NCBI GenBank assembly: GCA_021647945.1
Contig: JAKITT010000008.1
Location: forward strand, 569-64,568
From: Candidatus Polarisedimenticolaceae bacterium
GTDB lineage: Bacteria > Pseudomonadota > Gammaproteobacteria > Chromatiales > Chromatiaceae
Length of the DNA: 64,000 nt
Direction of reading: 5' to 3'
Part shown: piece by piece, positions 3,939 to 35,020 of the stretch
Numbering within the stretch: the first letter of the stretch is position 1
How the letters are laid out: the number at the start of each line of letters is the position of its first letter
Program-made: the position numbers and the translations under genes
Notes under the pieces: generated by a model
Told to the model about the DNA's origin: nothing
What the model saw: only the letters and a program-made list of their open reading frames with translations
Databases searched by the model: none

Positions 3939-4985
3939 ATGCAGAAGAGAGATAAAAAAAAGCATAATCAAGCAGCCTCTCATGCGTTGACGTTTGAGTT
4001 CGCGATGGAGATGGCTGATAGATTGACCCTACAGCCAGACTACCTGTCGCTGACGGAAGAGCTGTTAGCACAACTACACATTATACCTACGCTACAGTGT
4101 GCCCGAGTATTTGAGGTGCATAGTGCAACAAAGAGTGTTGATTATAGTGTTGTTTCAACCGATGACTTGATTGTCAGAGAGGTGGTGAATGATCTTGATG
4201 ATCTTCGTCCGTTTAATGACATCGCCTCGCTCAGCCGCTCTATTCAACGAATGAAAACAGGTGCTGACCAGGAGCTACCGACCTCCTTCCAACAGATTCT
4301 CTTACCTGTTCCTGGTGAAAATGGTCAGATGCGTGTTCTGCTAATTGAGGCAGATTATGTCGATGTTGAGTATTGGGGTTTGATCCATTGCTTGCTAAAT
4401 ATCTATCGAAATCAGCTGCTAATATTTGATGAGAAGGAGAGAGATCAGCTGACGGGGCTATATAATCGCCAGACGTTTGATGAAAAACTCTCTCGGGTGA
4501 TGAGTTTCTATCAGAAAAGGGCGGGAATCGCAGGCAGAAATACAGACCATAAAAGCTGGTTGGCTATTCTTGATATTGACCATTTTAAGAAGGTTAATGA
4601 CACTTTTGGTCATCTTATTGGTGACGAGGTTCTGCTGCTGTTTGCTCGAGTTATGGAGCAATCATTTAGACATACGGATATGCTGTTTCGGTATGGTGGT
4701 GAGGAGTTTATTGTCATACTTAATGGCACAGATGATGAGGGGGCACGAGTGGCGTTGGAGCGCTTTCGTTCCTGCGTGGCCAGTTATGCATTCCCTCAAG
4801 TGGGTCGGGTCACCGTCTCAACGGGTTATGTGCAGGTGGAAAAGAGCTATTTGCCGATATCATTAATTGAGCAAGCAGATAAGGCTCTGTACTATGCTAA
4901 GGATCATGGGCGAGACCAAGTCATCTGTTATGACCTTATTGCGGCAGAGGACTCGGCCAAAGAGGGTGATATTGAGTTGTTCTAA
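3939..4985 (+). CDS. Diguanylate cyclase (GGDEF domain) with an unassigned N-terminal half of about 170 aa
   Basis: LTGLYNRQTF, DIDHFKKVNDTFGH, and RYGGEEF preceded by an RxxD I-site (RHTD five residues upstream). Confidence 0.85.
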   Translation: MQKRDKKKHNQAASHALTFEFAMEMADRLTLQPDYLSLTEELLAQLHIIPTLQCARVFEVHSATKSVDYSVVSTDDLIVREVVNDLDDLRPFNDIASLSRSIQRMKTGADQELPTSFQQILLPVPGENGQMRVLLIEADYVDVEYWGLIHCLLNIYRNQLLIFDEKERDQLTGLYNRQTFDEKLSRVMSFYQKRAGIAGRNTDHKSWLAILDIDHFKKVNDTFGHLIGDEVLLLFARVMEQSFRHTDMLFRYGGEEFIVILNGTDDEGARVALERFRSCVASYAFPQVGRVTVSTGYVQVEKSYLPISLIEQADKALYYAKDHGRDQVICYDLIAAEDSAKEGDIELF

Positions 4986-5031
4986 AATAAGCAGACTTAA
5001 GATAGATATTTCCTAGTCGTACTGAAAGGTT

Positions 5032-6144
5032 TTGGTGGAACGCATGGATGAAAAAAAACGTATTCTTGTAGTTGATGATGAGCAGTTTAATGTAGCCATC
5101 CTTGAAGAGCTACTGGAAGATGAGGGATTTGAGGTCACGCCTGCGTACAGTGGCGAGTCCGCCATTGAAGCATTTGAAGAGTGCCATCCGCATCTGGTTT
5201 TACTGGATGTGATGATGCCAGGGATTGATGGCTATGAGACCTGTCGCCGGCTCCGAGAGTCTGGCCATAGCCAGATACCCGTAGTCTTCCTCTCTGCCAA
5301 AGCCTATCTAGAGGATAAACTCAAGGGCTACCAAGCGGGGGGTGATGACTACATTACAAAGCCCTTTACCAACGAAGAACTTATCGCAAAAGTGACGGTG
5401 CTGCTGAATAAAAAGCAGCAGCTTGAGCAGCTTAAGCAGAGCAGTGACGAGGCGACATCACTCGCCTACTCCTTGATGAGCACCTCATCCAAGGTTGGTT
5501 TCATTGGTCGATTTGTCAGTGAGAGCATGCGCTGTAAGGATGTTTCCTCCTTATGCACACTCTTTTTTAAAACTACGCAAGAGGGGTTTGGCATGCACGG
5601 CTTGATCCGCGTGGTCGCGGATGATGGCATCCATCTCTATAGTGATGATGGCGATATTCGTGCGTTGGATAGGGAGATTTTAGAGAGCTGTCGAGCAGAG
5701 GCTAGAATCACTCAGTTTGGTAATGATCGTGCCCTATTTTCATGGGGTGATGTGACGCTGTTAGTGCGTAATCTGCGTGAAGATGTCGATACACTCGCTA
5801 TCCTGTTGGACGGCTTCTGCAGTAGTCTGAATACCATTCAGTCGAGAAATGAGATGTTGCGGCTGGTTGATGATTTTCGTGAGAAAAATTTGTCATTAAA
5901 ACAACAGGCTATGAAGCTGCTGGATGAACTCACTGATGATCTAAGAGAACTATTTATCCATAGTGGGTCGCACTCAAATATTTCAGAAGAGGAAGAGGAG
6001 GCGTTGGTGACCGTCGTGGACAAGACCAGTGATCGCTTGGATAAACTGTTGGTTGAAGGTGAGGTAATGGAAGGACAGTTGGCTGCCGCACTGCAAAGAA
6101 TGGAGGTCGCTGAGTCGACTGAGGAGGAACCAGAGCTCTTCTAA
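5032..6144 (+). CDS. Response regulator (CheY-like receiver) with an unassigned C-terminal domain of about 240 aa
   Basis: ILVVDDEQFN...LVLLDVMMPGIDG...SAK...KPF receiver signatures. The C-terminal part has no motif I can name. An alternative ATG start lies at 5044. Confidence 0.8.
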   Translation: MVERMDEKKRILVVDDEQFNVAILEELLEDEGFEVTPAYSGESAIEAFEECHPHLVLLDVMMPGIDGYETCRRLRESGHSQIPVVFLSAKAYLEDKLKGYQAGGDDYITKPFTNEELIAKVTVLLNKKQQLEQLKQSSDEATSLAYSLMSTSSKVGFIGRFVSESMRCKDVSSLCTLFFKTTQEGFGMHGLIRVVADDGIHLYSDDGDIRALDREILESCRAEARITQFGNDRALFSWGDVTLLVRNLREDVDTLAILLDGFCSSLNTIQSRNEMLRLVDDFREKNLSLKQQAMKLLDELTDDLRELFIHSGSHSNISEEEEEALVTVVDKTSDRLDKLLVEGEVMEGQLAAALQRMEVAESTEEEPELF

Positions 6145-7133: not shown

Positions 7134-8048
7134 ATGTCATCCGAAGGTAACATCCGAGTCCCTTATTACCCAGGCTGCACCTTGAAGACTAAGGCGCAGG
7201 GGTTTGAGCGCTCCGCCATGGAGTGCTCTGAGGCACTTGGTTTCGTATTGGATGAGCTGAAGGATTGGAACTGCTGCGGCGCCTCCTTCCCGCTCACAAA
7301 AGATAATCTGATGGGGCTGGCTGGTCCGACTAATGTATTGATCGAGGCCGAAAAGCACTGTCAGGAGCATAATGTCGCCCCAAGTGTCGTGACGCTCTGC
7401 TCCTTCTGCTACAACACGCTGAAGCGCACCTCGCATGCCTTTAAGGAAGATCCGAGCAAACGTACCACGCTGAACGCCTTTCTTGAGCGTGACTATCAAG
7501 GCACCATCAAGGTTGAACACTACCTTGAGTACCTGCGCGACACATATGGTTTTGACAAGCTTGCTGAGCAGGTCAAGGTTGATATGAGCAGCATTCGGGT
7601 CGCCCCTTACTACGGCTGTCTGTTGTTGAAGCCGGGTAAAGAGATTGGTCTGGATGACCCAGAAGAGCCCACCATCCTGCACGATTTCCTTGATGCGATC
7701 GGCGTCACCGTTGTCGATTTCCCCGCTCAGGTGGATTGTTGTGGTTCCTACCTCGTGATGCGCGAGCCAGAGAAGGCGATGAACCTCTCCTCAGGCATTC
7801 TCGATGAGGCGGGTGAGTATGGTGCGCAAGCGCTTGTCACGGCCTGTCCATTATGTCAGTCCAATCTGGATAAATGTCAGCGCAGCAAAACATCGACAAA
7901 AGATGGCCTGCCCGTCCTCTATTTCACTCAGTTGTTAGCCATGGCACTTGGGCTAAGCACTGAAAATCATCAGTTTGAAGATCACCAGATCGATCCTCGG
8001 CCTGTTATCACAGCCTGCGGCATCGGTTGCAGCGAAAAAAGCGAATAG
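7134..8048 (+). CDS. hdrB: HdrB-like subunit with two CCG domains
   Basis: Two complete Cx(n)CCGx(m)CxxC units: YYPGC...NCCGAS...LCSFCYNTL and YYGC...DCCGSY...ACPLCQSNL. GAGGAG RBS upstream. Confidence 0.85.
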   Translation: MSSEGNIRVPYYPGCTLKTKAQGFERSAMECSEALGFVLDELKDWNCCGASFPLTKDNLMGLAGPTNVLIEAEKHCQEHNVAPSVVTLCSFCYNTLKRTSHAFKEDPSKRTTLNAFLERDYQGTIKVEHYLEYLRDTYGFDKLAEQVKVDMSSIRVAPYYGCLLLKPGKEIGLDDPEEPTILHDFLDAIGVTVVDFPAQVDCCGSYLVMREPEKAMNLSSGILDEAGEYGAQALVTACPLCQSNLDKCQRSKTSTKDGLPVLYFTQLLAMALGLSTENHQFEDHQIDPRPVITACGIGCSEKSE

Positions 8049-8058
8049 GAGTCAGCCT

Positions 8059-8844
8059 GTGGAAACAAGCTCTCAAGATAAACCCATGATGACCGGTGAC
8101 CGCACCATCCCGCCAGAGGGTGCGCGTTACATCACTATATATATTATGGGACAGGCTTATGAAATACCTGAAACCCTAACCATCCTCAAGGCACTAGAGT
8201 TTGCCGGATTCCAATACAAACGCGGTTGCGGTTGTCGTGGCGGAATCTGTGGCGCTTGTGGCACCTTCTATCGTAAAGAGGGTGACCATACCCTGTTTAC
8301 CGGCCTCGCCTGCCAAACGGTCGCTGAAGATGGCATGATCCTGGCTCAACTCCCCTTCTTCCCCGCAAATCGGGCAGATCATGCGGGTGTTGATATGGAT
8401 CTCTCTCCCGATGAGCAGATCAATACTCTCTACCCAGAGATCTTCCGTTGTGTCGGTTGTGGAACCTGTACCCGCACCTGCCCTATGGATATCGATGTGA
8501 TGGGATACATTGCCCACTTCAAACGGGGTGATGTGGCACGCGGTGCTAAGACCTCCTTTGATTGCATCATGTGTGGACTCTGTGTCAGCCGCTGCCCTGC
8601 AAACATCTCGCAGATGAATGTAGCCATGGCAGGTCGTCGCATCTATGCCGCGCAGATGATGCCACGCTCGGAGGCCACCAAGAGCCGTGCCGATCAGGTA
8701 CGCGAAGGGCGCTACGAGCCAGCACTGGCCGAATTGGCTCAGATGAGCAAAGAGGAGCTGAAAGAGCTCTACGTCGGTCGCGAACGCGAACCTGATCTCT
8801 CCAAGCCAGGCGAGTGGATGCCGGCTGATACGACTAACTTATAA
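8059..8844 (+). CDS. frdB: Succinate dehydrogenase/fumarate reductase iron-sulfur subunit-like protein (FrdB-like)
   Basis: N-terminal 2Fe-2S pattern (CGCRGGICGACG...C) followed by CVGCGTCTRTCP and CIMCGLCVSRCP. I place the start at GTG 8059 (AGGAG at 8047-8051, 7-nt spacer). The track start at 7975 would overlap hdrB by 74 nt. Confidence 0.75.
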   Translation: METSSQDKPMMTGDRTIPPEGARYITIYIMGQAYEIPETLTILKALEFAGFQYKRGCGCRGGICGACGTFYRKEGDHTLFTGLACQTVAEDGMILAQLPFFPANRADHAGVDMDLSPDEQINTLYPEIFRCVGCGTCTRTCPMDIDVMGYIAHFKRGDVARGAKTSFDCIMCGLCVSRCPANISQMNVAMAGRRIYAAQMMPRSEATKSRADQVREGRYEPALAELAQMSKEELKELYVGREREPDLSKPGEWMPADTTNL

Positions 8845-8855
8845 AGGGTAAACCC

Positions 8856-10526
8856 ATGCAACACGGTTACACTCCTGAAATGCTGGAACAGATTAAACGC
8901 GTTGAAGCGAGCCGCCCTGAGCGCCTTGCAGAGTCGCAAGCGGGCAAAGCGTTCCAAGCTATGTCAATGGATCAGCGCGATGAAGTGCTGAATGCCTATC
9001 ACCCAGATTACACCGAAGAGGGGCGCAGAGCGCTCGGCATCGGTGCTAATAAAGGCGAAGTCTACCCAGAAGAGCTAGTCGATCTGCTTGAGTCACGTAG
9101 TTTCATCGAAGGTGTTGAGGTCGATCTCAGCAAGCCAGATATTGAGACCGATGTACTCGTGATTGGTGGCGGCGGTGCAGGTACAGCCTGTGCGTTGACC
9201 GCAGCCCAAGCGGGCCTCAATGTCATCGTCTCAACTAAGCTACGCCATGGTGATTCAAACACCGTCATGGCCGAGGGTGGTATTCAGGGTGCTGATCAAG
9301 AGCCTGACTCTCCCTACTTCCACTATCTGGACGTAATCGGTGGTGGTCACTTCAAAAATGACCGTGGTTTGGTTGCTGCAATGACCAATGACGCACCGCT
9401 CATCATCGAATGGCTGGAGAGCCTCGGCATGATGTTCGACAAACACCCCGATGGCCGCATGCAAGTGCGTCATGGTGGTGGTACCAGCCGTAAACGTATG
9501 CACTCCGCCGGTGATATGACCGGTGCTGAGATCATGCGTGTGCTGCGTGATGAGTCACGTGACCATAAAGATAAAATCAAAGTTCTTGAGTTCTCACCAG
9601 CCGTTGAGCTGCTGATGGATGAGAATGGCCGCTGTGCTGGCGCCATCTTGAACAACATTGAGACCGCTACTTATCAAGTGGTCAAAGCCAAATCAGTCGT
9701 TATCGCCACTGGCGGTACTGGTCGTCTGCACTATCGTGGTTTTGCTTGTACTAATCACTACGGTGCAACCGGTGATGGCCTGGTAATGGCCTACCGTGCT
9801 GGAGCCAAATTGGGTTACATGGAGTCTGTTCAGTACCATCCAACCGGTACTGCATTTCCAGAGCAGAACGTTGGCTTGCTAGTGACCGAGAAAGTACGTG
9901 GTCTTGGCGGTCAACTGCTTAATATTGAAGGCGAGCAGTTCGTATTTCCACTGGAGCCGCGTGATGTTGAGTCCGCCGCGATTATTCGTGAGTGTGTCGG
10001 CCGCAAAAAGGGTGTTCGCACCCCAACTGGTCGCCTGGGTGTCTGGCTTGATTCACCGCTGATTGATCAGCTGCACGGTGCTGGCACCGTTGAGCGTGAG
10101 CTGCCTGCCAAGTACATTCAGTTCAAACGCTTTGGCATCGATATCGCCAAAGTGCCAATGCTGATCTACCCAACACTGCACTATCAAAATGGCGGCATCA
10201 CCATTGATGATAAATCACAGACCACCATTCCAGGCCTCTATGCGGCTGGTGAAACCACAGGCGGCGTGCATGGTCACAACCGTCTGATGGGCAACTCACT
10301 GCTCGACATTCTGGTCTTTGGTCGTCGCGCTGCCCTGGCTGCCGTTGCCGCTATTGAGGCTGGCGACCTGCCTGGTGCAGCTAATCTCAACCATCTGACC
10401 ACCTATGCAGATGAGTTGGAAGCAGCAAATTTGGATCGTGGCATTAAGAGTCCAATGATTCTACCTAACTACGCAACCGATGAAATTCGCGCACATCGCT
10501 GGAATGTTGACTCTCCAGTTATCTAA
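8856..10526 (+). CDS. frdA: Fumarate reductase/succinate dehydrogenase-type flavoprotein (FrdA-like, probably non-covalent FAD)
   Basis: VLVIGGGGAGTACAL dinucleotide fold, YHPTG, LEPRDVES, HYQNGGI and GGVHGHNRLMGNSLLD signatures. SNTVMAEGG stands where FrdA/SdhA have SHTVAAEGG. Confidence 0.85.
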   Translation: MQHGYTPEMLEQIKRVEASRPERLAESQAGKAFQAMSMDQRDEVLNAYHPDYTEEGRRALGIGANKGEVYPEELVDLLESRSFIEGVEVDLSKPDIETDVLVIGGGGAGTACALTAAQAGLNVIVSTKLRHGDSNTVMAEGGIQGADQEPDSPYFHYLDVIGGGHFKNDRGLVAAMTNDAPLIIEWLESLGMMFDKHPDGRMQVRHGGGTSRKRMHSAGDMTGAEIMRVLRDESRDHKDKIKVLEFSPAVELLMDENGRCAGAILNNIETATYQVVKAKSVVIATGGTGRLHYRGFACTNHYGATGDGLVMAYRAGAKLGYMESVQYHPTGTAFPEQNVGLLVTEKVRGLGGQLLNIEGEQFVFPLEPRDVESAAIIRECVGRKKGVRTPTGRLGVWLDSPLIDQLHGAGTVERELPAKYIQFKRFGIDIAKVPMLIYPTLHYQNGGITIDDKSQTTIPGLYAAGETTGGVHGHNRLMGNSLLDILVFGRRAALAAVAAIEAGDLPGAANLNHLTTYADELEAANLDRGIKSPMILPNYATDEIRAHRWNVDSPVI

Positions 10527-10551
10527 ACGAATCGGTGGTTAAGGAGTAAAT

Positions 10552-12603
10552 ATGGCTAAGATCGGTGTCTTTGTCTGTCAATGCGGCAACAATATTGCGC
10601 GCACTGTCGACACAGCAGACGTAGCAAAAGATGCCAGCGAGCAGAGCGGCGTAGTCTTTGTAGAAGACTACAAGTTCATGTGTTCTGCACCTGGTCAAGA
10701 GGCGTTCAAAAAGGCGATCAGAGATCACGATCTTGATGGCTGTATTGTCTCTGCATGTAGCCCAAAAATGCACGAAGCAACATTTCGTAATGCGGCTGAA
10801 GCAGCAGGGCTGAACCCTTTTAAGGTTGAGATCGCAAACATTCGTGAGCAGTGCTCATGGGTGCATAATGACAAAGAGATCGGCACCGCCAAATCGAAAG
10901 ATTTGACCCGCATGATGATCCAGCGGGTTAAGTATAACCGTCCGCTTGAGCGTTATCGCATGACGATGACTAAACGTGCGTTGATTCTTGGTGGCGGTAT
11001 CGCCGGTATCCAAGCAGCGCTCGATCTGGCTAACGCCGGAACGCCGGTCACCATCGTTGAGAAAGAGCCTTCATTGGGCGGCAATATGGCCCGTCTCTCT
11101 GAGACATTTCCAACCCTCGATTGCTCGCAGTGTATCCTCACACCAAAAATGGTGGAGGTGCAGAATCACCCGCTGATCACCATTCGTGCCTTTGCTGAAC
11201 TAGAGAAGCTAGATGGTTACATCGGTAACTTCAAAGCTACCATTCGCCAAAAAGCGAAAAGTGTTATCGACAAAGATTGCACCGGTTGTGGTGACTGTTG
11301 GGAGAAGTGTCCGTTCACTGTAGAGAGTGAATTTGACATGAACCTGATCAAGCGGAAGGTGATCTACATTCCGTTCCCTCAGGCGGTACCGACTGTTCCG
11401 GTGATTGATCGTGCCAACTGTCCAAAATTTCTCAAAGACAAATGTGGTATCTGTGCCGATGTCTGTGGTCCAGATTGTATCGATTTTACTCAAGAAGATG
11501 AGATCATCGAAGAGGAGTTTGGTGCGGTTATTGTAGCGACTGGCTTCGAATTGATGCCGAATGTCTACAAAGAGTACGGTGGCAGCAGCATGCCGCAGCA
11601 TCTCATCCCGAAGAAGATGAACAAGAAGCAGCGCGCTGCACAGCCACGCTCCACCTCGGGTCGTCTGCCAGATGTGATCAATGGCTTAGAGTTTGAGCGT
11701 CTTGCCTCTGCTTCTGGCCCAACGGGTGGTGAGATACGTCGTCCATCGGATGGCAAGAAACCTAAAACTGTTGTCTTTATCGCCTGTGTTGGTTCGCGTG
11801 ATGCCAGTAAAGGTGTCGAGTACTGCTCAAAGATCTGCTGTATGTACACTGCCAAACACACCATGCTCTATAACCACAGCGTGGATGATGGCAAAGCCTA
11901 CGTCTTCTATATGGATATCCGTGCCGGTGGTAAAGGGTACGAAGAGTTTATCAATCGCGCCCAGGATGAGGGGGCCGAGTATATCCGTGGCCGCGTCTCC
12001 GCTCTGAGAAAGAAGGGCGATAAGATTCTGGTCAAAGGTGCAGATACCCTACAAGGGTGCGCCGTTGAGATTGAAGCCGATATGGTTGTGTTGGCAACCG
12101 CCATGGTGCCGCAGGCTGATGCGATAGATTTCGCTAAAACCCTCGGTATTAGCTACGACAAACACGGTTTCTACTCAGAGCAGCATCCAAAACTGATGCC
12201 GGTTGATTCATCGACCGGTGGTATCTACCTCGCTGGCGCCTGTCAGGGTGTGAAAGATGTTCCAGAGACGGTTGCTCAGGCCTCAGCCGCCGCATCAAAG
12301 GTGATGCAGCTCTTCTCCAAAGAGGAGTTGATGCGTGAACCTGAAGTGGCGATTGTTGATAAAGAGCACTGCATGAACTGCTGGGATTGCGTCACGGTCT
12401 GTCCTTACTTGGCGATCAGCCCAGAAGAGGTCAAAGATCGTAACGGCAACGTGGTGAAGATGGTCGCAAACGTCAACCCAGGCCTCTGCCAAGGTTGCGG
12501 ACTTTGCAACACCGTTTGCCGCTCGAAAAGTATCGAACTACAGGGCTATACCGATCAACAGGTCTACGCCCAGATTACCGCCTTTGAAGGAGCTTTTGTC
12601 TAA
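10552..12603 (+). CDS. hdrA: HdrA-like FAD/iron-sulfur subunit
   Basis: 683 aa. N-terminal IGVFVCQCGNNI, an FAD fold (ALILGGGIAGIQAALDLA), internal Cys clusters (CTGCGDCWEKCP) and C-terminal CMNCWDCVTVCP / CQGCGLCNTVC ferredoxin motifs. AAGGAG RBS. Confidence 0.85.
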   Translation: MAKIGVFVCQCGNNIARTVDTADVAKDASEQSGVVFVEDYKFMCSAPGQEAFKKAIRDHDLDGCIVSACSPKMHEATFRNAAEAAGLNPFKVEIANIREQCSWVHNDKEIGTAKSKDLTRMMIQRVKYNRPLERYRMTMTKRALILGGGIAGIQAALDLANAGTPVTIVEKEPSLGGNMARLSETFPTLDCSQCILTPKMVEVQNHPLITIRAFAELEKLDGYIGNFKATIRQKAKSVIDKDCTGCGDCWEKCPFTVESEFDMNLIKRKVIYIPFPQAVPTVPVIDRANCPKFLKDKCGICADVCGPDCIDFTQEDEIIEEEFGAVIVATGFELMPNVYKEYGGSSMPQHLIPKKMNKKQRAAQPRSTSGRLPDVINGLEFERLASASGPTGGEIRRPSDGKKPKTVVFIACVGSRDASKGVEYCSKICCMYTAKHTMLYNHSVDDGKAYVFYMDIRAGGKGYEEFINRAQDEGAEYIRGRVSALRKKGDKILVKGADTLQGCAVEIEADMVVLATAMVPQADAIDFAKTLGISYDKHGFYSEQHPKLMPVDSSTGGIYLAGACQGVKDVPETVAQASAAASKVMQLFSKEELMREPEVAIVDKEHCMNCWDCVTVCPYLAISPEEVKDRNGNVVKMVANVNPGLCQGCGLCNTVCRSKSIELQGYTDQQVYAQITAFEGAFV

Positions 12604-13088
12604 TGAGCAAAGGTATCGTACGGCACGATTTTGAGCCGAAAATCATGGGCTTTGTCTGTAAGTGGTGTACCTATTCCGGTGCCGATCTGGCTGGAACCAG
12701 CCGTATGGACTACTCGCCTCATGTACGCATGGTGCGCTTGCCATGTTCCGGTCGAATTGACCCGCAATTTGTTATCAAAGCCTTTGAACAAGGTGCAGAT
12801 GGCGTCATCATCTCAGGTTGTCACCCAGGTGACTGCCACTACAACGAGGGTAACTATTATGCCCGTCGTCGTAATTTGGCCTTCCGTAATTTGATGGAGT
12901 TCAATGGCATCGATATCAAACGCCTGGAGTTCTCTTGGATCTCCGCCGCTGAAGCGATCAAATTTACGCAGATCATCGATAAATTTACCAATCAAGTGCG
13001 TGATCTTGGGCCCAATGAAGGATACAGAGCGCTGCTTGACCCCTATGCATCTAGATTGGTTAAGTCCTCTGAGGAGTCCGCCGCATGA
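12603..13088 (+). CDS. mvhD: MvhD/FlpD-like (FlxD-like) iron-sulfur subunit
   Basis: IMGFVCKWCTYSGADLAG...VRLPCSGRIDP...GADGVIISGCHPGDCHY is the FlpD/MvhD signature. The start overlaps the hdrA stop (TAATG). Confidence 0.85.
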   Translation: MSKGIVRHDFEPKIMGFVCKWCTYSGADLAGTSRMDYSPHVRMVRLPCSGRIDPQFVIKAFEQGADGVIISGCHPGDCHYNEGNYYARRRNLAFRNLMEFNGIDIKRLEFSWISAAEAIKFTQIIDKFTNQVRDLGPNEGYRALLDPYASRLVKSSEESAA

Positions 13089-13978
13089 TTGAGCAGATTC
13101 GAGAAAAAGCCCGCGAGCTACTAGAGAGTGGTGAGTTGGATGTGGTGATTGGTTACGCCGAAGGGAGTGACCCGACCCGCACCACCCCCATCTTCTGCCG
13201 CAAACCAGAAGATACCGATAAACTGGTTCTTGATGGCCGCTGCGTTAATACGCTGCCCGCTTATCTAAATAAGCGCCATGAGTATCCAAAAAAGGGTTGG
13301 AAGAAGACCGGCATCATCGGTAAAGGGTGTGATATTCGCGCCATTACGCAGTTGATCGCTGAGAATCAGTTGAAGCGTGATGAGGTCTACATCTTCGGTG
13401 CCGAGTGTGAAGGTGTCGTTGCCCATCCCGAGAAGTGGGATGGCTCACTGCATGAAGGCAACTGTGCCAGCAAATGCAGCGCATGTGATGTGAAGATTCC
13501 GCTGGATACCGATTTCTATCCTGGTGAAAAACCGGAGGTGGATCGTTCTGGCCCCTACATGGTGTCAGCGCCTGCACTGGCTACCCTAGTGAAGATGGAT
13601 GATGAAGATCGTTTCGCCTTCTGGCGTGATGATTTCGATCGTTGCTTCAAGTGTTACGCCTGCCGCGAGGTCTGCCCTCACTGCTCCTGTAACATCTGTA
13701 TTACAGATCGCACCATGCCAAGTTGGGTTGATCAGGCCGCACATACCAAGGGTGTGTTTGGTTGGCATCTGACCCGCGCTATGCATCTTGTTGGCCGCTG
13801 TACCGGCTGTGGTGAATGTACCCGCGCCTGCCCTGTCAACATTCAAGTCGACCTCTTCAATCAAAAAATGAAAGAGGTTATTCAGGAGTCCTTCGATTAT
13901 AAATCGGGTTACTCAATGGAGGTCAAGCCACCGCTGATCACCTATAACACCGACGATCAGGAGACCTACATCCGTTAG
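13085..13978 (+). CDS. Iron-sulfur protein, FlxC-like (4Fe-4S motifs)
   Basis: CFKCYACREVCPHCSC and CTGCGECTRACP motifs. ATGA overlap with the mvhD stop. The family assignment rests on motif and context only. Confidence 0.6.
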   Translation: MIEQIREKARELLESGELDVVIGYAEGSDPTRTTPIFCRKPEDTDKLVLDGRCVNTLPAYLNKRHEYPKKGWKKTGIIGKGCDIRAITQLIAENQLKRDEVYIFGAECEGVVAHPEKWDGSLHEGNCASKCSACDVKIPLDTDFYPGEKPEVDRSGPYMVSAPALATLVKMDDEDRFAFWRDDFDRCFKCYACREVCPHCSCNICITDRTMPSWVDQAAHTKGVFGWHLTRAMHLVGRCTGCGECTRACPVNIQVDLFNQKMKEVIQESFDYKSGYSMEVKPPLITYNTDDQETYIR

Positions 13979-30776: not shown

Positions 30777-30810
30777 ATGCAGATACAGTTTGTATCGCTG
30801 ACGTAGGGCT

Positions 30811-31036
30811 CTGATGTCTTGGGTTTCGCCCTCTGGCGAGTGTCTTTTCTTTGCGCGGCCAAAGAAAAGGCACCAAAAGAAAGGCCGCCCCTATATCGCT
30901 CCCCTATCGGGGTTCCCTGCGCTGCTCACAAAATGACGGTCACTCAGGAACTCGCCCTGGCAAACAGCGCCAGGACTCAGACAGCCTTCGCTCTCTCCGT
31001 CATTTTGATCCGCTGCTCGGAGCGATATAAAGGGGA
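30811..31036. repeat. Left arm of a long inverted repeat flanking the 31092-32492 gene
   Basis: Read against the reverse complement of 32625-32900, it matches over nearly its full length. The right arm carries an insertion of about 55 nt. The arm contains internal hairpins (CTTTTCTTTG-CGCGGC-CAAAGAAAAG; TATATCGCTCC...GGAGCGATATA). Confidence 0.85.
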
Positions 31037-31091
31037 AGGTATAGAGTGACCAAATGAAAAGGTACTAAGCACACTCTTTTTCATACCTTAC

Positions 31092-32492
31092 TTACCCAAC
31101 AACACCCTTATCTTCATGCCCGGAAGGATCTAGTATTTCATTGTTATTTTCCTTTTGAGCATCCCCAATTCCATTATTGTCAGCATCTGAGGCATTATTC
31201 ATACTTTTGACTTTGGGTGGTCGTGGCATCCATTTATTAATATGTTGGCCTACATCCCGATAAAAGTCTGGGACTGATGACAACATAGACTCAACAAAAA
31301 CTTTGCTCCCATTGAACTTCCTGCCTAAATCAATCACCCGTGTAACAATCAAAAAGCGAGGAATATCTTTCATTCCATCTGGGACTAATACATTTGGGTC
31401 TTCGAGAACAGCTGATAAATCTGCCTGAGTATCTGTAACCCTGCCAGGCCAGATGGCTTTGACGATAAGATCCTTAGGTTCTATTGACTTTAATTGACGA
31501 GTAAGCCAATTGATTGCGGCTGTGGATCTAGATCGATCTTTTGGCGCTTCCAGCTTCATGCTGAGTACTACTACTCTACGCATAAAATCTGCAGTTACTG
31601 AGATATTTGAGGCAGCATTAGGAATACACAGTTCATCCGTTAGAGTGTGTTGGCTGACAATCTCATCAATATCTTCATGGAGTTTTGCAGTTGGGTATTT
31701 TACATGAGTCCGAGTGAGCGAAACTTCCACTTGGCTATTTGTAGACATTGAAAGTTCTAGAGCAATATATCGAAAAAGCTGCTGCCAGCTTTCTACTGTT
31801 GACTCACATTCAAGAGAGTTCTTTTTTAATGCAGCTCCTTGCTGGATATGAGTGCAGATATCTTTCCATTCTGTGTTCATCTGACTCATAGGTGACACCC
31901 CAGAATATGGGTGGTTTAAGTATCGCACGAGCTCTTTAAGGATGATCGCTTGCTCTCTATCACCAACACTTTTTGAGCTTGACATGATTGCTGCTTTAGA
32001 TAGAACTGCCATCCATGAGAAATGAAAGAGATCAACTGTACGAGTTTTATGTTTTGACACTGTAACAGGATGATGTGTAGGTATAGTTGCGAACTGATTA
32101 GAGATAGTAATTAATGCATTAACTCCAATCGATTTTGATAGATCTAAATATTTTTCAATTTGTTCTTTATTGAGCTCGTTATTGCCAACTTTTGCCTCAA
32201 CAAGAGCGGACCATGTTTTTTTGCCACGCGAAATAACAATCAAGCCATCTGGTCGCAACCCATTAAACTCTTTTTCATTAAAAGTAACTTCGGTATAGCA
32301 TTTGATTTCTGATCGTTGGCCTATTTTTGCACCGGCCTCAGCTAATATTGATTCGGCAAACTGAGGAACAATCATAAATGTAGAAAGTAATACTGATGTT
32401 GCCCGTTCTTCTTTTTTTGAATCTGCAACTACAGGGATGAGACGAGCCTTTGAGCCAGACTTAATATGAGATGTAATATCACTGTTAGACAT
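31092..32492 (-). CDS. Hypothetical 466-aa protein with an N-terminal PD-(D/E)xK nuclease-like motif
   Basis: It is the only long ORF in a clearly AT-richer segment. ...KKEERATSVL...LRPDGLIVISRGKKTWSALVEAKVG... gives E / PD / ExK in canonical order and spacing. I cannot assign the C-terminal 300 aa. Confidence 0.6.
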   Translation of the reverse strand: MSNSDITSHIKSGSKARLIPVVADSKKEERATSVLLSTFMIVPQFAESILAEAGAKIGQRSEIKCYTEVTFNEKEFNGLRPDGLIVISRGKKTWSALVEAKVGNNELNKEQIEKYLDLSKSIGVNALITISNQFATIPTHHPVTVSKHKTRTVDLFHFSWMAVLSKAAIMSSSKSVGDREQAIILKELVRYLNHPYSGVSPMSQMNTEWKDICTHIQQGAALKKNSLECESTVESWQQLFRYIALELSMSTNSQVEVSLTRTHVKYPTAKLHEDIDEIVSQHTLTDELCIPNAASNISVTADFMRRVVVLSMKLEAPKDRSRSTAAINWLTRQLKSIEPKDLIVKAIWPGRVTDTQADLSAVLEDPNVLVPDGMKDIPRFLIVTRVIDLGRKFNGSKVFVESMLSSVPDFYRDVGQHINKWMPRPPKVKSMNNASDADNNGIGDAQKENNNEILDPSGHEDKGVVG

Positions 32493-32624
32493 TTACCTAC
32501 CCTCCTTGATTCTTATGGCTTTCTTCTAGATATATCTCAGCCCAAGGATAAACGACTTCGATATTCATTTGAAGTTACCTGCAACCCACTGAGAAACCAC
32601 CCAGGCTATCAGTATGCACCCTAA

Positions 32625-32900
32625 TCCCCTTTATATCGCTCCGAGCAGCAGAGCAAAATGACGGAGTGAGCGAAGGCTGTTTGAGTCTTGGCGTTGTTTG
32701 CCAGGGCGAGTTCCTGAGCGACCGTTATTTTGTGAGCAGCGCAGGGAACCCGAAGGGAGCGATATAGGGGCGGCCTTGACGTGCAGGGATGCACTAATGC
32801 CGTGGAGCATATGGATGTGCGGGAGCGGCGCTTTTCGTTAGTTTTTCTTTGGCCGCGCAAAGAAAAGTAACTCGCCAACAGGCGAAACCCCAGCCATCAG
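32625..32900. repeat. Right arm of the long inverted repeat flanking the 31092-32492 gene
   Basis: Reverse complement of 30811-31036 plus an internal insertion of about 55 nt. Confidence 0.85.
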
Positions 32901-32953
32901 TCTCTAACAACAAGCCTTCATCACCCAGAAACCTAAAGGCAGCACCAGCCCCC

Positions 32954-33235
32954 TCAACTGATAGTGGTCAACTCCCTCAAAAAATCCCCCCACCCATGAG
33001 AGAAAATCACCATAAACACCGTCAACCCAAGAAAGATAAAAAAGATACGTCGAAAACGCGCGTGGGCGAAACGCAACTCCATATAGTGATCAATCACCAT
33101 CCCCCCCTTAAATCCAATCAAGAGTGCAACCGTCAACGTCAACGGCCATCCAGCATGACCGGTCTCAGCAAGCCATGTACTGACCAGCGTCAGACCAATA
33201 AGCAGAAACCAGATTTTTTCGCTATGTTGGATCAT
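32954..33235 (-). CDS. Small membrane protein, prokaryotic cytochrome oxidase subunit IV family
   Basis: 93 aa from the ATG at 33235, which overlaps the stop of the upstream CoxIII-like gene (ATGA). It has three hydrophobic helices. The family call rests on size, topology and context. Confidence 0.55.
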   Translation of the reverse strand: MIQHSEKIWFLLIGLTLVSTWLAETGHAGWPLTLTVALLIGFKGGMVIDHYMELRFAHARFRRIFFIFLGLTVFMVIFSHGWGDFLRELTTIS

Positions 33236-33834
33236 CGCAGGATATAGAACAAAGGAAAGATAATCAGCCAGATCACATCGGTGGTGTGCCAAAAAAGAGC
33301 TGCTGCCTCAAGACCTTGATAATCCTTTGATGAATAGATGCCAAAACCTGTTCGAATAGCGACCCAAAACAGCCCTAGCAGGGCCCAGCCGACATGTACT
33401 AAATGGTTAAGGGTGAGGTAGTAGTAGATGGTGTAGAAGGTGCCCGTCTCACCATCGATACCGTTTGCGATATTCCAGCGTATCTCGAATATCTTCACGA
33501 TGGGATAGCCAAACCCCAATACAATGGCGGCAATAATCCAGCGCAGTGTTACTTGCTTATTGTCTCGCCGAATCGCTTCAATGGCTTTGACCATGCAGTA
33601 GCCGCTGGTCAGTAGAAAGAGGGTGATCGTGATGCCTGCTGTGGTGAGCAGTTTGTCGGGGCCGCTGTTGAATGCCTCGGGGTTGTGGACTTTGGCGATG
33701 AAGTAGACTGCAAATAGCAGCGTGAACTCAACCAATACACAGAATATACCGACCCATATCCCACCATTGCCGGGTATGCGGCTGTAGAGGGGGGGCGTAG
33801 TTACTCTCTCGACTGTAGTATCAGAGTGGCTCAT
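33232..33834 (-). CDS. Heme-copper oxidase subunit III family protein (CoxIII/NorE-like)
   Basis: 200 aa with five TM helices. The C-terminal LFWHTTDVIWLIIFPLFY segment matches the subunit III signature. Confidence 0.75.
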   Translation of the reverse strand: MSHSDTTVERVTTPPLYSRIPGNGGIWVGIFCVLVEFTLLFAVYFIAKVHNPEAFNSGPDKLLTTAGITITLFLLTSGYCMVKAIEAIRRDNKQVTLRWIIAAIVLGFGYPIVKIFEIRWNIANGIDGETGTFYTIYYYLTLNHLVHVGWALLGLFWVAIRTGFGIYSSKDYQGLEAAALFWHTTDVIWLIIFPLFYILR

Positions 33835-34002
33835 GTTTTATAGAACTTCATCATGCCCTGTCGTAACGGTGGCATGGGTGTCGCACAGGTGTGAGCTAAG
33901 ATGCCAAATAGTTGCTTTACTGATCCATGACCTAAGTCATATCGAGTGATATTAAGTGTGGAAAACTACGGTTTTGAAAATGAGCTGCTTTTTCCTGCGC
34001 TA

Positions 34003-34196
34003 GGGAACCTCTGATTAAGTCTGGTTGCACTAAAGCATAAGATTCGCTAAAGCTCAGCTAAAATTTAGGGTGAGATAAAACTGTTCCGATTTGTTTCGAA
34101 GTGAGCTGTAATAGTTGTTCTATTGCAGCGATCTTCGGAGCGAGTCGGGGTGGTTTTAGCCAGTCTAAAACAATCATGACTTATTCAGAGGTTCCC
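34003..34196. mobile_element. MITE-like element with 19-bp terminal inverted repeats and a TA duplication in a CTAG target (IS630/Tc1-mariner style)
   Basis: GGGAACCTCTGATTAAGTC (34003-34021) against GACTTATTCAGAGGTTCCC (34178-34196) matches 18/19. Each end is flanked by TA inside CTAG. There is no ORF inside. An internal imperfect hairpin lies around 34095-34140. Confidence 0.65.
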
Positions 34197-35020
34197 TAGA
34201 GCTGTGGATCAAATGCGATGTCACCCTCATCGACCTCACTCTCCTGTGTCAGCCCTTTAAAATCATAGAGGTCACTATCCAACAGATGTGATGGCACCAC
34301 CTGCTGCATCGCGGTAAAGATTGACTCGGTACGGCCAGGATAATCTTTCTCCCAATCGGTCAGCATCTGTTTAACCCGTTGCCGCTGTAGATTATCCTGT
34401 GAGCCACAGAGGTTGCAGGGGATGATCGGAAATTCCAAGGCGCGTGCATAGCGGGCGATGTCCTTCTCTTTGCAGTAGGCGAGCGGTCGGATGACGATAT
34501 TCTCTTTGTCATCGGTGACCAGCTTAGGAGGCATGGTCTTCATTTTGCCGCCAAAGAAGAGGTTGAGAAATAGCGTCTCAACAATATCATCGCGGTGATG
34601 GCCGAGAGCGATCTTGGTGGCCCCTAGCTCTTTTGCGGTACGGTAGATGATGCCGCGACGTAGACGTGAGCAGAGTGAGCAGGTGGTTTTACCAACGGGG
34701 ATCTTCTCCTGCACAATTGAGTAGGTGTCCTCTGCGACGATGTGATATTCAACGCCGAGTGTCTTTAGGTATTCTGGCAGGATGTGGTCGGGGAAGCCGG
34801 GCTGCTTCTGGTCAAGATTCATGGCGATGATCTTGAAGTCGATCGGTGCGCGTTTTTGCAGGGCGGTGAGTACTTTGAGTAGGGTGTAGGAGTCTTTGCC
34901 GCCACTGAGGCAGACCATTACGACATCATCCGCCTCAATCATGTTGAAGTCGGCGATCGCCTTGCCAGTATTGCGCTCTAACAGGCGCTCTAACTTCTTA
35001 CTGTTTCCACTCAGTTTCAT
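34196..35020 (-). CDS. ttcA: tRNA 2-thiocytidine(32) synthetase
   Basis: PP-loop CLSGGKDS and [10 protein letters not shown] motifs, 274 aa. Confidence 0.9.

Follow-up and report, generated by a model that had tools for sequence, protein, structure and literature searches.

In 2010, Weinberg et al. included TwoAYGGAY (RF01731) among their probable RNAs (PMC2864571). Extended TwoAYGGAY elements of Pseudomonadota are described as mobile-element-like, with zero to 202 copies per genome; 68.4% of their doublets are divergent, with a median spacing of 249 bp, and Csr/Rsm proteins have been proposed to bind their AYGGAY loops (Li et al. 2026, bioRxiv 10.64898/2026.09.22.753630). The words "nuclease," "cargo" and "terminator" appear nowhere in the main text of that report (10.64898/2026.09.22.753630), and no prior report of a doublet enclosing a protein-coding gene was found in the literature. 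Here we describe such an arrangement in a 64,000-nucleotide (nt) stretch of DNA from Candidatus Polarisedimenticolaceae bacterium (contig JAKITT010000008.1, positions 569 to 64,568; hereafter the window). A cassette at 30811-32900, just downstream of prlC, consists of two long inverted arms around a single gene, whose product of 466 amino acids (aa) is a predicted PD-(D/E)xK nuclease.

The arm pair is a divergent doublet of TwoAYGGAY-type elements, and the reading that we favor, with a little more confidence than doubt, is that a stand-alone defense-type nuclease of predicted function is the cargo of this doublet and moved with it as one unit. Both the nuclease superfamily and the repeat family are already known. 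New features are a large unnamed protein family with an unmatched C-terminal domain and a TerD fusion, an apparent protein-coding cargo within a TwoAYGGAY-type doublet, with empty-site evidence, and a covarying 50-nt module with terminator-like ends that is found across Beta- and Gammaproteobacteria.

A prediction made from the letters of the window without database searches (the original prediction) had placed one gene in an AT-rich interval between reverse-complementary arms, and each of these elements was recovered. The interval 30811-32900 holds one long open reading frame (ORF) of 466 aa (31092-32492, minus strand), with a strong Shine-Dalgarno sequence, AAGGAGG, 8 nt 5' of its ATG; the gene is intact and under purifying selection. 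Its G+C content is 39.6%, falling to 0.35 to 0.43 in a sliding profile across the ORF, versus 50.5% for the window, 53.5% for prlC and 56.2% and 55.4% for the two arms. A spacer of 55 nt (31037-31091) separates the stop codon from the left arm. The AT-rich region of 132 nt on the 5' side of the gene (32493-32624) carries the ribosome-binding site and presumably the promoter; a sigma-70 promoter scan of this region on the gene strand detected none.

The left arm (30811-31036, 226 nt) and the right arm (32625-32900, 276 nt) are inverted copies of each other, with 94% complementarity over a block of 127 nt, 100% over 23 nt and 88% over 58 nt. From the outside inward, each arm is built of a small GC hairpin, a conserved module of approximately 50 nt and a long hairpin of approximately 150 nt whose structure, rather than sequence, is conserved. 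On the left, the small GC hairpin TTCGCC-CTCT-GGCGAG and the T-rich start of the module (30825-30840, plus strand) are followed by the terminal module (30840-30892, plus strand; nhmmer E = 2.3e-15), which comprises a 14-bp hairpin, GTGTCTTTTCTTTG-N6-CAAAGAAAAGGCAC, and then CAAAAGAAAGGCCGCCCC. The long imperfect hairpin (30881-31036) has the basal stem CCCCTATATCGCTCC / GGAGCGATATAAAGGGG and folds as DNA with a free energy (dG) of -47.5 (z -4.1); with RNA parameters, its pairs span 156 nt (z -3.4). On the right, alignment and folding identify an inverted copy of this hairpin (32625-32777), and the module copy (32824-32871, minus strand; nhmmer E = 7.5e-10) has its third motif displaced by a segment of 66 nt (32778-32843, plus strand) found in this arm only. 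The module is followed outward by the small GC hairpin TTCGCC-TGTT-GGCGAG with its T-rich tail (32871-32886, minus strand). The 66-nt segment is the insertion that had been estimated at approximately 55 nt, and motif searches and folds show that it is a pair of small GGA-loop hairpins. In plus-strand sense these are GUGCA-GGGA-UGCAC and GCAUA-UGGA-UGUGC, the latter holding AUGGAU, which fits AYGGAY. Folded by itself, the segment is no more stable than its shuffles, and a motif search found no AYGGAY in the left arm.

Both junctions score as intrinsic-terminator-like in a terminator scan, each with TTCGCC-N4-GGCGAG followed by the T-rich module start, and face inward, from the prlC side on the left and from the cox-gene side on the right. 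The element would therefore block read-through from both of its convergent neighbors.

The arm was searched against plasmid and chromid records. A 50-nt piece of it occurs with 85 to 94% identity in unannotated DNA of Aeromonas, Pasteurella, Pseudoalteromonas, Ralstonia and Burkholderia, at one to three places per replicon; it is absent from E. coli, and IMG/VR contains one match. The window itself contains no third copy of the arm, and we rejected a high-copy dispersed repeat as an explanation on that ground. No exact arm 20-mer was matched in the genome-contig collection, which does not include the window's own genome, and a literature search with the module sequence returned irrelevant primer matches only. 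The arms share an architecture: a small GC-rich tetraloop hairpin, the 14-bp module hairpin (N)ACTTTTCTTTG-N6-CAAAGAAAAGT(N) followed by CAAAAGAAAGGC, and a long imperfect hairpin that starts from the next CCCC. The module is an A/T-rich 14-bp hairpin plus an A-rich repeat of its own 3' half, and its arrangement with the small hairpin recurs at the other arm instances. Across 12 copies, 92.9% of the cells of the module hairpin are paired and 8 of the 14 pairs are changed on both sides, values reached by none of 500 shuffles. The long hairpins share no sequence; their pairs span 125 to 340 nt with z values of -2 to -8, the truncated Burkholderia copy excepted.

Gene-less arm pairs in back-to-back orientation are found in Pasteurella, where dapF and a DUF484 gene flank the pair, and following cphA in Ralstonia, with spacers of approximately 60 to 260 nt. 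Single arms lie just 3' of a gene in Burkholderia, in Aeromonas and at L014, a locus that also carries a member of the nuclease family. These gene-less pairs, together with the empty site described below, bear out the suggestion in the original prediction that the gene is carried in a palindromic repeat element.

The connection with TwoAYGGAY is made through arms in other genomes. RF01731 is matched over its full length by the long hairpin of the arm in Pseudoalteromonas (56.7 bits versus a cut-off of 43), with a second, divergent partial copy 263 nt away, and the Aeromonas arm is near the same cut-off at 41.5 bits. The upstream arm of L004, a metagenomic contig discussed below, gives a weak RsmW-like match (23.7 bits, E = 0.28); TwoAYGGAY and RsmW both belong to Rfam clan CL00106. 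The Rfam matches and the module lie on opposite strands, which makes the module a 3' extension of the element in RNA sense, and in that sense the arms of the window are divergent. They resemble TwoAYGGAY in their long basal hairpin followed by further conserved hairpins, in the 50-nt module that they share with the bona fide Pseudoalteromonas match and the near-threshold Aeromonas match, and in the GGA/AYGGAY loops of the right arm. Their additional 3' hairpin with covariation and their divergent pairing set them, by description, beside the extended elements of Li et al. They differ in scoring with no Rfam model, in the lack of AYGGAY from the left arm and in a spacer of 1.6 kb that contains a protein-coding gene, versus the reported median of 249 bp. 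The two GGA hairpins of the right arm also lie 3' of the basal hairpin and not within it, whereas RF01731 has two AYGGAY-loop hairpins on a common basal stem.

The cassette is horizontally acquired. The closest relatives by prlC, L097 (90%) and L093 (89%), have the gene order of the window on both sides, but in both of them prlC is followed after 35 nt by a convergent ttcA, with neither cassette nor cox-like genes; the original prediction of horizontal acquisition agrees with this absence. A more distant relative, L095 (prlC 81%), provides the empty site. The window aligns with L095 up to 30830 and again from 32872, and these points map to the adjacent L095 positions 9092 and 9088. At this junction L095 has a single strong hairpin, CTCTGATGTTTTGGGTTCGCC-AGCA-GGCAAAACCCTAAAACATCAGAG (dG -24.1, z -8.5). 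Its two halves form the outermost 25 nt or so of each arm in the window, with the rest of the cassette at the hairpin tip: blastn and the junction alignment show that the left half, GGGCTCTGATGTCTTGGGTT (30806-30825), is whole and contiguous with its partner in L095, and comparison with L095 likewise identifies the right half, AACCCCAGCCATCAGTCTC (32885-32903). Since the hairpin that is split in the window is intact in L095, part of the inverted repeat is a split host hairpin, and L095 represents the empty site. A comparison of the interval between prlC and coxIII in related genomes had been proposed: L095 carries the intact outer hairpin in place of the cassette, and L093 and L097 lack both cassette and cox genes.

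In its terminal inverted repeats around a non-transposase passenger, its gene-less miniatures and its empty site in a relative, the cassette resembles miniature inverted-repeat transposable elements and mobile insertion cassettes. It differs in that its ends are complex structured units of 200 to 280 nt and that no target-site duplication is defined. The search for such a duplication found TCGCC-N4-GGCGA on both sides, with different loops; the small hairpins of the Ralstonia copies are inverted, not direct, and therefore define no duplication. We found neither a transposase nor a recombinase with corresponding ends, and we know of no related autonomous insertion sequence or transposase for these arms.

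The arrangement of arms and gene recurs at an unrelated site. In L004, a protein with 64% identity to that of the window is encoded between DUF1015 and ycgL genes and is enclosed by homologous inverted arms in the same order. The distance upstream of the ATG is 135 nt versus 132 nt in the window, the two regions being similar in part, and the flanks have a G+C content of 61.6% versus approximately 52% here.

The 466-aa protein belongs to a large family. The record of an identical protein, from a Candidatus Polarisedimenticolaceae metagenome-assembled genome, is annotated as a hypothetical protein, more than 1,879 homologues were retrieved by a word-indexed search, and an exhaustive search yielded at least 1,575 clusters at 50% identity. 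Members are mostly 430 to 500 aa long, and the family alignment spans residues 5-435. The family matches no model of Pfam, NCBIfam, PADLOC or PHROGs, and neither the single protein nor the alignment profile retrieved a significant match among PDB sequences. The sole Pfam signal is to VRR_NUC at 13.2 bits, below the cut-off of 23.8; among 92 diverse members, sub-threshold Pfam matches were to VRR_NUC (18), PDDEXK_4 (4), TnsA_N (2) and Mrr_cat (1), with a best E value of 0.0012.

Conservation and structure identify the N-terminal part. All conserved polar residues fall within 17-187 (R17, E28, S33, E68, R80-P81-D82-G83, E99, K101, Q111, Y115, T129, S131, N132, H157, S159, W160 and E187), and R17, E28, E68, R80-P-D82-G, E99, K101, Q111, Y115, H157 and W160 are near-invariant. 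Across the 92 members, K101 and Y115 are conserved in 100% and D82, E99 and Q111 in 99%. An AlphaFold2 model built on the 92-sequence alignment (mean predicted local distance difference test score [pLDDT] of 93.1, predicted template modeling score of 0.85) has an alpha-beta-beta-beta-alpha-beta core, formed by helix 27-41, strands 62-71, 83-89 and 92-100, helix 109-122 and strand 126-131, all with pLDDT above 95. The catalytic D and ExK sit on strands 2 and 3 (D82; E99 and K101). The segments KKEERATS, RPDGLIVIS and ALVEAKVG, from which a PD-(D/E)xK core had originally been proposed, correspond to helix 27-41 and to strands 83-89 and 92-100 of this confident model. The order of motifs in the family, E, D, ExK and QxxxY, is that of RecB/Cas4-type PD-(D/E)xK nucleases. 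Residues 17-190 accordingly read as a PD-(D/E)xK nuclease domain of RecB/Cas4-like type (D, ExK, QxxxY), as judged from motifs and model, with nuclease activity predicted.

The nearest structures agree with the nuclease fold of the original prediction. The best Foldseek matches in the PDB are restriction endonucleases, MspJI (4f0p, E = 2e-3) followed by EcoT38I (7e8r), PaqCI and BamHI, all of them covering approximately 200 residues and those to MspJI and EcoT38I being weak (TM scores of 0.18 to 0.25). In BFVD, the best match is a phage "PD-(D/E)XK nuclease superfamily protein" (E = 1.8e-4, target TM score of 0.52, approximately 200 residues). With the methyltransferase-less PD-(D/E)xK restriction enzymes MspJI and EcoT38I the protein shares the core fold, the D...ExK motif and the character of a solitary, horizontally transferred gene. 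It differs in that its nuclease domain is N-terminal and that no SRA-like or other known reader domain is present. The comparison with Type IV restriction is similar: the gene stands alone, with no methyltransferase in the cassette and no conserved neighbor across approximately 45 loci, but the protein has no recognizable modified-base reader domain. RecB, Cas4 and AddB nucleases share the order of motifs, and placement in their clade is suggested by general knowledge of these motifs; the family differs from them in having no Fe-S cysteines, no helicase or Cas partner and no profile match. In the 92-sequence alignment no cysteine position reaches 80% conservation, so that there is no four-cysteine Fe-S cluster of the Cas4/AddB type.

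The remainder of the protein is as unmatched as it first appeared. The conserved domain at residues 200-435 has no Pfam match and no meaningful PDB neighbor (best Foldseek E = 0.045, probability 0.23), and when modeled alone the C-terminal 240 aa or so reach a pLDDT of 92.1. It conserves hydrophobic and aromatic positions only. A second, degenerate nuclease domain with an alpha-beta-beta-beta-alpha-beta order was considered for this half and rejected because of the absence of a PDB match and of conserved polar residues; for the same reasons the half is a conserved non-catalytic domain of unmatched fold, with a role presumably in target recognition or regulation. The acidic/Asn tail noticed originally (residues 436-466) is present, modeled with low confidence, disordered and unconserved. 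A search of long family members for informative domain fusions turned up a single GYF_2 tail only.

Family loci were gathered by a genome search with 13 sequences. Gammaproteobacterial hosts include Thiohalomonadaceae, Thiodiazotropha, Pseudohongiellaceae, Cellvibrionales, Endozoicomonas, Halomonas, Cycloclasticus, Spongiibacter, Alcanivoracaceae and Lysobacterales, and other hosts belong to Flavobacteriales, Verrucomicrobia, Anaerolineae, Eisenbacteria, Zetaproteobacteria and Rhodospirillales. The G+C content of the nuclease gene is lower than that of its flanks in most of 85 loci, and there is no synteny between hosts. A census of 148 neighboring proteins at approximately 45 loci found no family at more than four of them, so that no partner gene is conserved, in agreement with the lack of a partner in the cassette that was noted at the outset. 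Neighbors at some loci include defense genes, namely GajA/GajB (Gabija), HamA/HamB (Hachiman), a retron I-B reverse transcriptase with an ATPase-Toprim protein, and OLD/ABC-type ATPases; integrases and rve transposases are also found. At three loci the nuclease gene is next to tRNA genes or fragments of group II introns. The solitary position, lack of synteny, low G+C content and occasional defense neighbors are the profile of a horizontally moving accessory gene that is sometimes located in defense islands.

On actinobacterial plasmids of Rhodococcus and Streptomyces, proteins annotated as "TerD family protein" combine a TerD domain (aa 6-171) with the nuclease module (aa 294-713). This 420-aa module is 31% identical to the window protein and keeps the catalytic motifs and residues. 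The N-terminal TerD domain is absent from the window protein, and no arms were seen at the plasmid loci. The fusion is an independent hint of a link with stress or phage.

Taken together, the shell of the cassette is a divergent doublet of TwoAYGGAY-type repeats, situated at the tip of what would be a pre-existing hairpin, and the nuclease gene, in the central spacer of the doublet, would be its single cargo. The terminator-like ends would insulate this cargo from read-through out of prlC and the cox genes, and doublet and gene would have moved as one unit. The arms would then be the vehicle and transcriptional insulator of the nuclease and not its substrate. The enzyme is probably a stand-alone accessory DNA nuclease that needs no partner, and a defense type (Type-IV-restriction-like or an abortive-infection effector) is the most plausible because no methyltransferase or partner accompanies it, because it is sometimes found in defense islands and because of the TerD fusion in actinobacteria.

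Several observations weigh against this reading. No defense family of PADLOC-DB v2 matches the 466-aa protein at E ≤ 1, most of the neighbors in the census are ordinary metabolic and transport genes, and enrichment in defense islands seems modest; the defense or restriction role in the original prediction is to that extent putative. The phage collection contains no homologue of the protein. The arms of the window give no Rfam score even at E ≤ 10, and their connection with TwoAYGGAY depends on the module and the architecture that they have in common with other arms and on the GGA hairpins in the right arm. Neither a target-site duplication nor a mobilizing enzyme is defined for the cassette, and one gene family accompanies arms at three loci, more often than would be expected of a pure passenger. 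Finally, the hairpin of L095 could be the scar of a deletion of the palindrome interior rather than the target of insertion.

The last but one of these points leads to the main rival, a RAYT-like master copy, in which the nuclease would cut and propagate TwoAYGGAY-type elements in trans and the gene-less doublets would be its non-autonomous progeny. REP (repetitive extragenic palindrome)-associated transposase (RAYT) genes are flanked by REPs, and, as in RAYT/REPIN systems, the single gene here has inverted copies of a structured repeat on its two sides, and this repeat also exists as gene-less inverted doublets. The module profile, run over approximately 868 kb of fetched DNA, was detected only at the described arms and beside the nuclease gene at three independent loci (the window, L004 and L014). 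The protein has a weak profile similarity to structure-specific nucleases (VRR_NUC), and no mobilizing enzyme of TwoAYGGAY doublets is yet known (10.64898/2026.09.22.753630). Most of the distribution speaks against such a relationship: approximately 77 of 80 family loci lack the module and a flanking inverted repeat, only 3 of 80 having arms and 2 of 80 lying inside a doublet, and in L014 the gene is outside the arm. A further 13 family loci have no Csr-clan RNA, the 4.9-Mb Aeromonas caviae record has three arms and no tblastn match to the protein, and the window has no extra arm copy. Other differences from RAYT/REPIN are the PD-(D/E)xK fold in place of a Y1/HUH transposase, arms approximately 10 times longer than REPs and not dispersed in the window, and the lack of arms in most members of the nuclease family. 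We consider the master-copy explanation unlikely. The specific claim that the 466-aa protein mobilizes TwoAYGGAY-type repeats, with the window and L004 as the autonomous arm-nuclease-arm form and gene-less divergent doublets as non-autonomous derivatives, seems slightly more doubtful still; if true, it would define a novel type of mobile element, one that is driven by a nuclease, targets hairpins and parallels RAYT/REPIN.

Inverted repeats were also considered as a general, transposase-like trait of the family and rejected: among 85 loci they flank the gene only at L004/L005, repeats shorter than 20 bp being below detection, and the module profile adds only the window and L014 to L004.

Chance could have brought gene and arms together, the gene having landed by illegitimate recombination in a fragile palindrome or the arms having inserted independently, in either case with no role for the arms in its spread. 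In its favor, recombination is known to concentrate at long palindromes, arms in many genomes are inserted beside GC hairpins at the 3' ends of genes, and every relative examined shows rearrangement downstream of prlC. Such a juxtaposition is nevertheless improbable in view of L004, where homologous arms in the same order and at similar spacing enclose the gene in an unrelated location, in a host with a G+C content of 61.6% versus approximately 52%. This recurrence favors a single origin, after which arms and gene moved together.

Homing, which the original prediction had offered as a possibility, would have the nuclease cut an empty doublet or a cruciform at its center, with repair then copying the gene into it. 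PD-(D/E)xK homing nucleases and junction-resolving enzymes exist, empty doublets exist, and in two genomes the gene occupies exactly the central spacer, with similar spacing. Most family members are outside doublets, however, with arms at 3 of approximately 80 loci, and an empty doublet and the gene never occurred in the same genome among those seen. The gene also has its own 132-nt upstream region and, unlike homing endonuclease genes, neither intron or intein context nor a family-wide association with its site (2 of 80 loci in a doublet). We give this selfish mode of spread little credence.

Little credence likewise attaches to a conserved cellular nuclease for repair or recombination that happens to lie in a variable region. 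The size of the family, its conservation over the full length, the RecB/Cas4-like QxxxY motifs and the many housekeeping neighbors would suit a housekeeping function, but the gene is absent from the closest relatives, holds no syntenic position between hosts, has a G+C content below that of its host at most loci and is patchily distributed among taxa.

An RNA-level unit, with arms that serve as RNAs bound by Csr/Rsm proteins and a gene product that works on RNA or under CsrA control, would accommodate the GGA-loop hairpins of the right arm, the clan shared by TwoAYGGAY and RsmW, the proposed role of the AYGGAY loops (10.64898/2026.09.22.753630) and a CsrA-family gene 1 kb upstream of the closest homologue, but is very improbable given the left arm without AYGGAY, the lack of an Rfam match in the window, the outward reading of the arms, which would leave them outside the mRNA of the gene, and CsrA co-occurrence at one locus only.

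The cassette offers a first protein-coding handle on the spread of these repeats and of orphan nucleases. A doublet with cargo, an empty site and a second, unrelated locus make movement of the doublet as a unit and the carriage of cargo directly testable. The landing of elements with terminator-like ends at hairpins by the 3' ends of genes bears on how genomes tolerate them, and the protein family is a candidate for a new single-gene defense or DNA-processing function.

Outside the module, unrelated sites carry short sequences that resemble one another: the window has TTGTATCGCTGACGTAG (30790-30806), L004 has TTGTGTCGCTAGCGCGA (5598-5614 and 7753-7769) and L092, a Burkholderia cepacia plasmid, has GTCTGCTAGCGTCGCC (approximately 5960-5975). 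In L004, the two copies of TTGTGTCGCTAGCGCGA form a perfect 17-nt outer inverted repeat. These outer sequences may be the true ends of the element or a target preference. L004 also has a GTAGG-type REP-like hairpin (7425-7506), with 31-nt arms that are 81% complementary, between the gene and the downstream arm; it is absent from the window. In L092, the 50-nt module abuts the Rfam small RNA candidate Bp1_684 (5900-6011, minus strand; 118.8 bits) in the gap between aceF and lpdA, and this predicted RNA may be part of the arm repeat element.

Two short ORFs in the window, of 76 aa (30819-31049, plus strand) and 85 aa (32621-32878, minus strand), are mirrored translations of the arms. They are almost certainly spurious, and gene callers might annotate them. 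No tRNA gene and no Rfam family at gathering score was found in the window. The cassette is part of a lineage-specific interval of 3.4 kb (30779-34197) that is absent from L093 and L097 and also includes two cox-like genes identified by Pfam, one COX4_pro-like (32954-33292, 112 aa) and one COX3-like (33232-33834, 200 aa), and 362 nt of non-coding DNA, the cox-like genes and this DNA together occupying 32954-34195. The CoxIV/CoxIII-like neighbors, taken in the original prediction for housekeeping context, are missing with the cassette from these two closest syntenic relatives, so that the right-hand neighbor, and not only the cassette, is itself lineage specific. In L095, a chimeric ORF (9174-9548, minus strand) fuses the N terminus of a DDE_Tnp_1_4 transposase (IS1380 type) with approximately the last 20 codons of the COX4-like gene; the DNA downstream of prlC is a rearrangement hotspot in this clade.

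Individual family loci have features of their own. The closest homologue (L001, 72% identity) has, together with the CsrA-family gene, three XRE-type helix-turn-helix genes (4376-5614) on its upstream side, and four genes without a Pfam match and a DEAD/ResIII helicase downstream (7699-13422); these gene groups may be an uncharacterized island, and the CsrA gene is of interest given that the arms are related to RNAs proposed to bind Csr proteins. In Endozoicomonas (L055), group II intron segments flank the nuclease gene on both sides (4403-4786 and 8721-9050). The tRNA genes that adjoin the nuclease gene in L048 (4643-4715) and L060 (6823-6909) are typical of island insertion sites. On the Rhodococcus plasmid pR8L1 (L088, 6509-7783), the TerD-nuclease fusion is followed by a gene pair annotated as a RES-family NAD+ phosphorylase and a helix-turn-helix protein, which resembles a RES-Xre toxin-antitoxin pair and would fit an accessory, defense-rich neighborhood.

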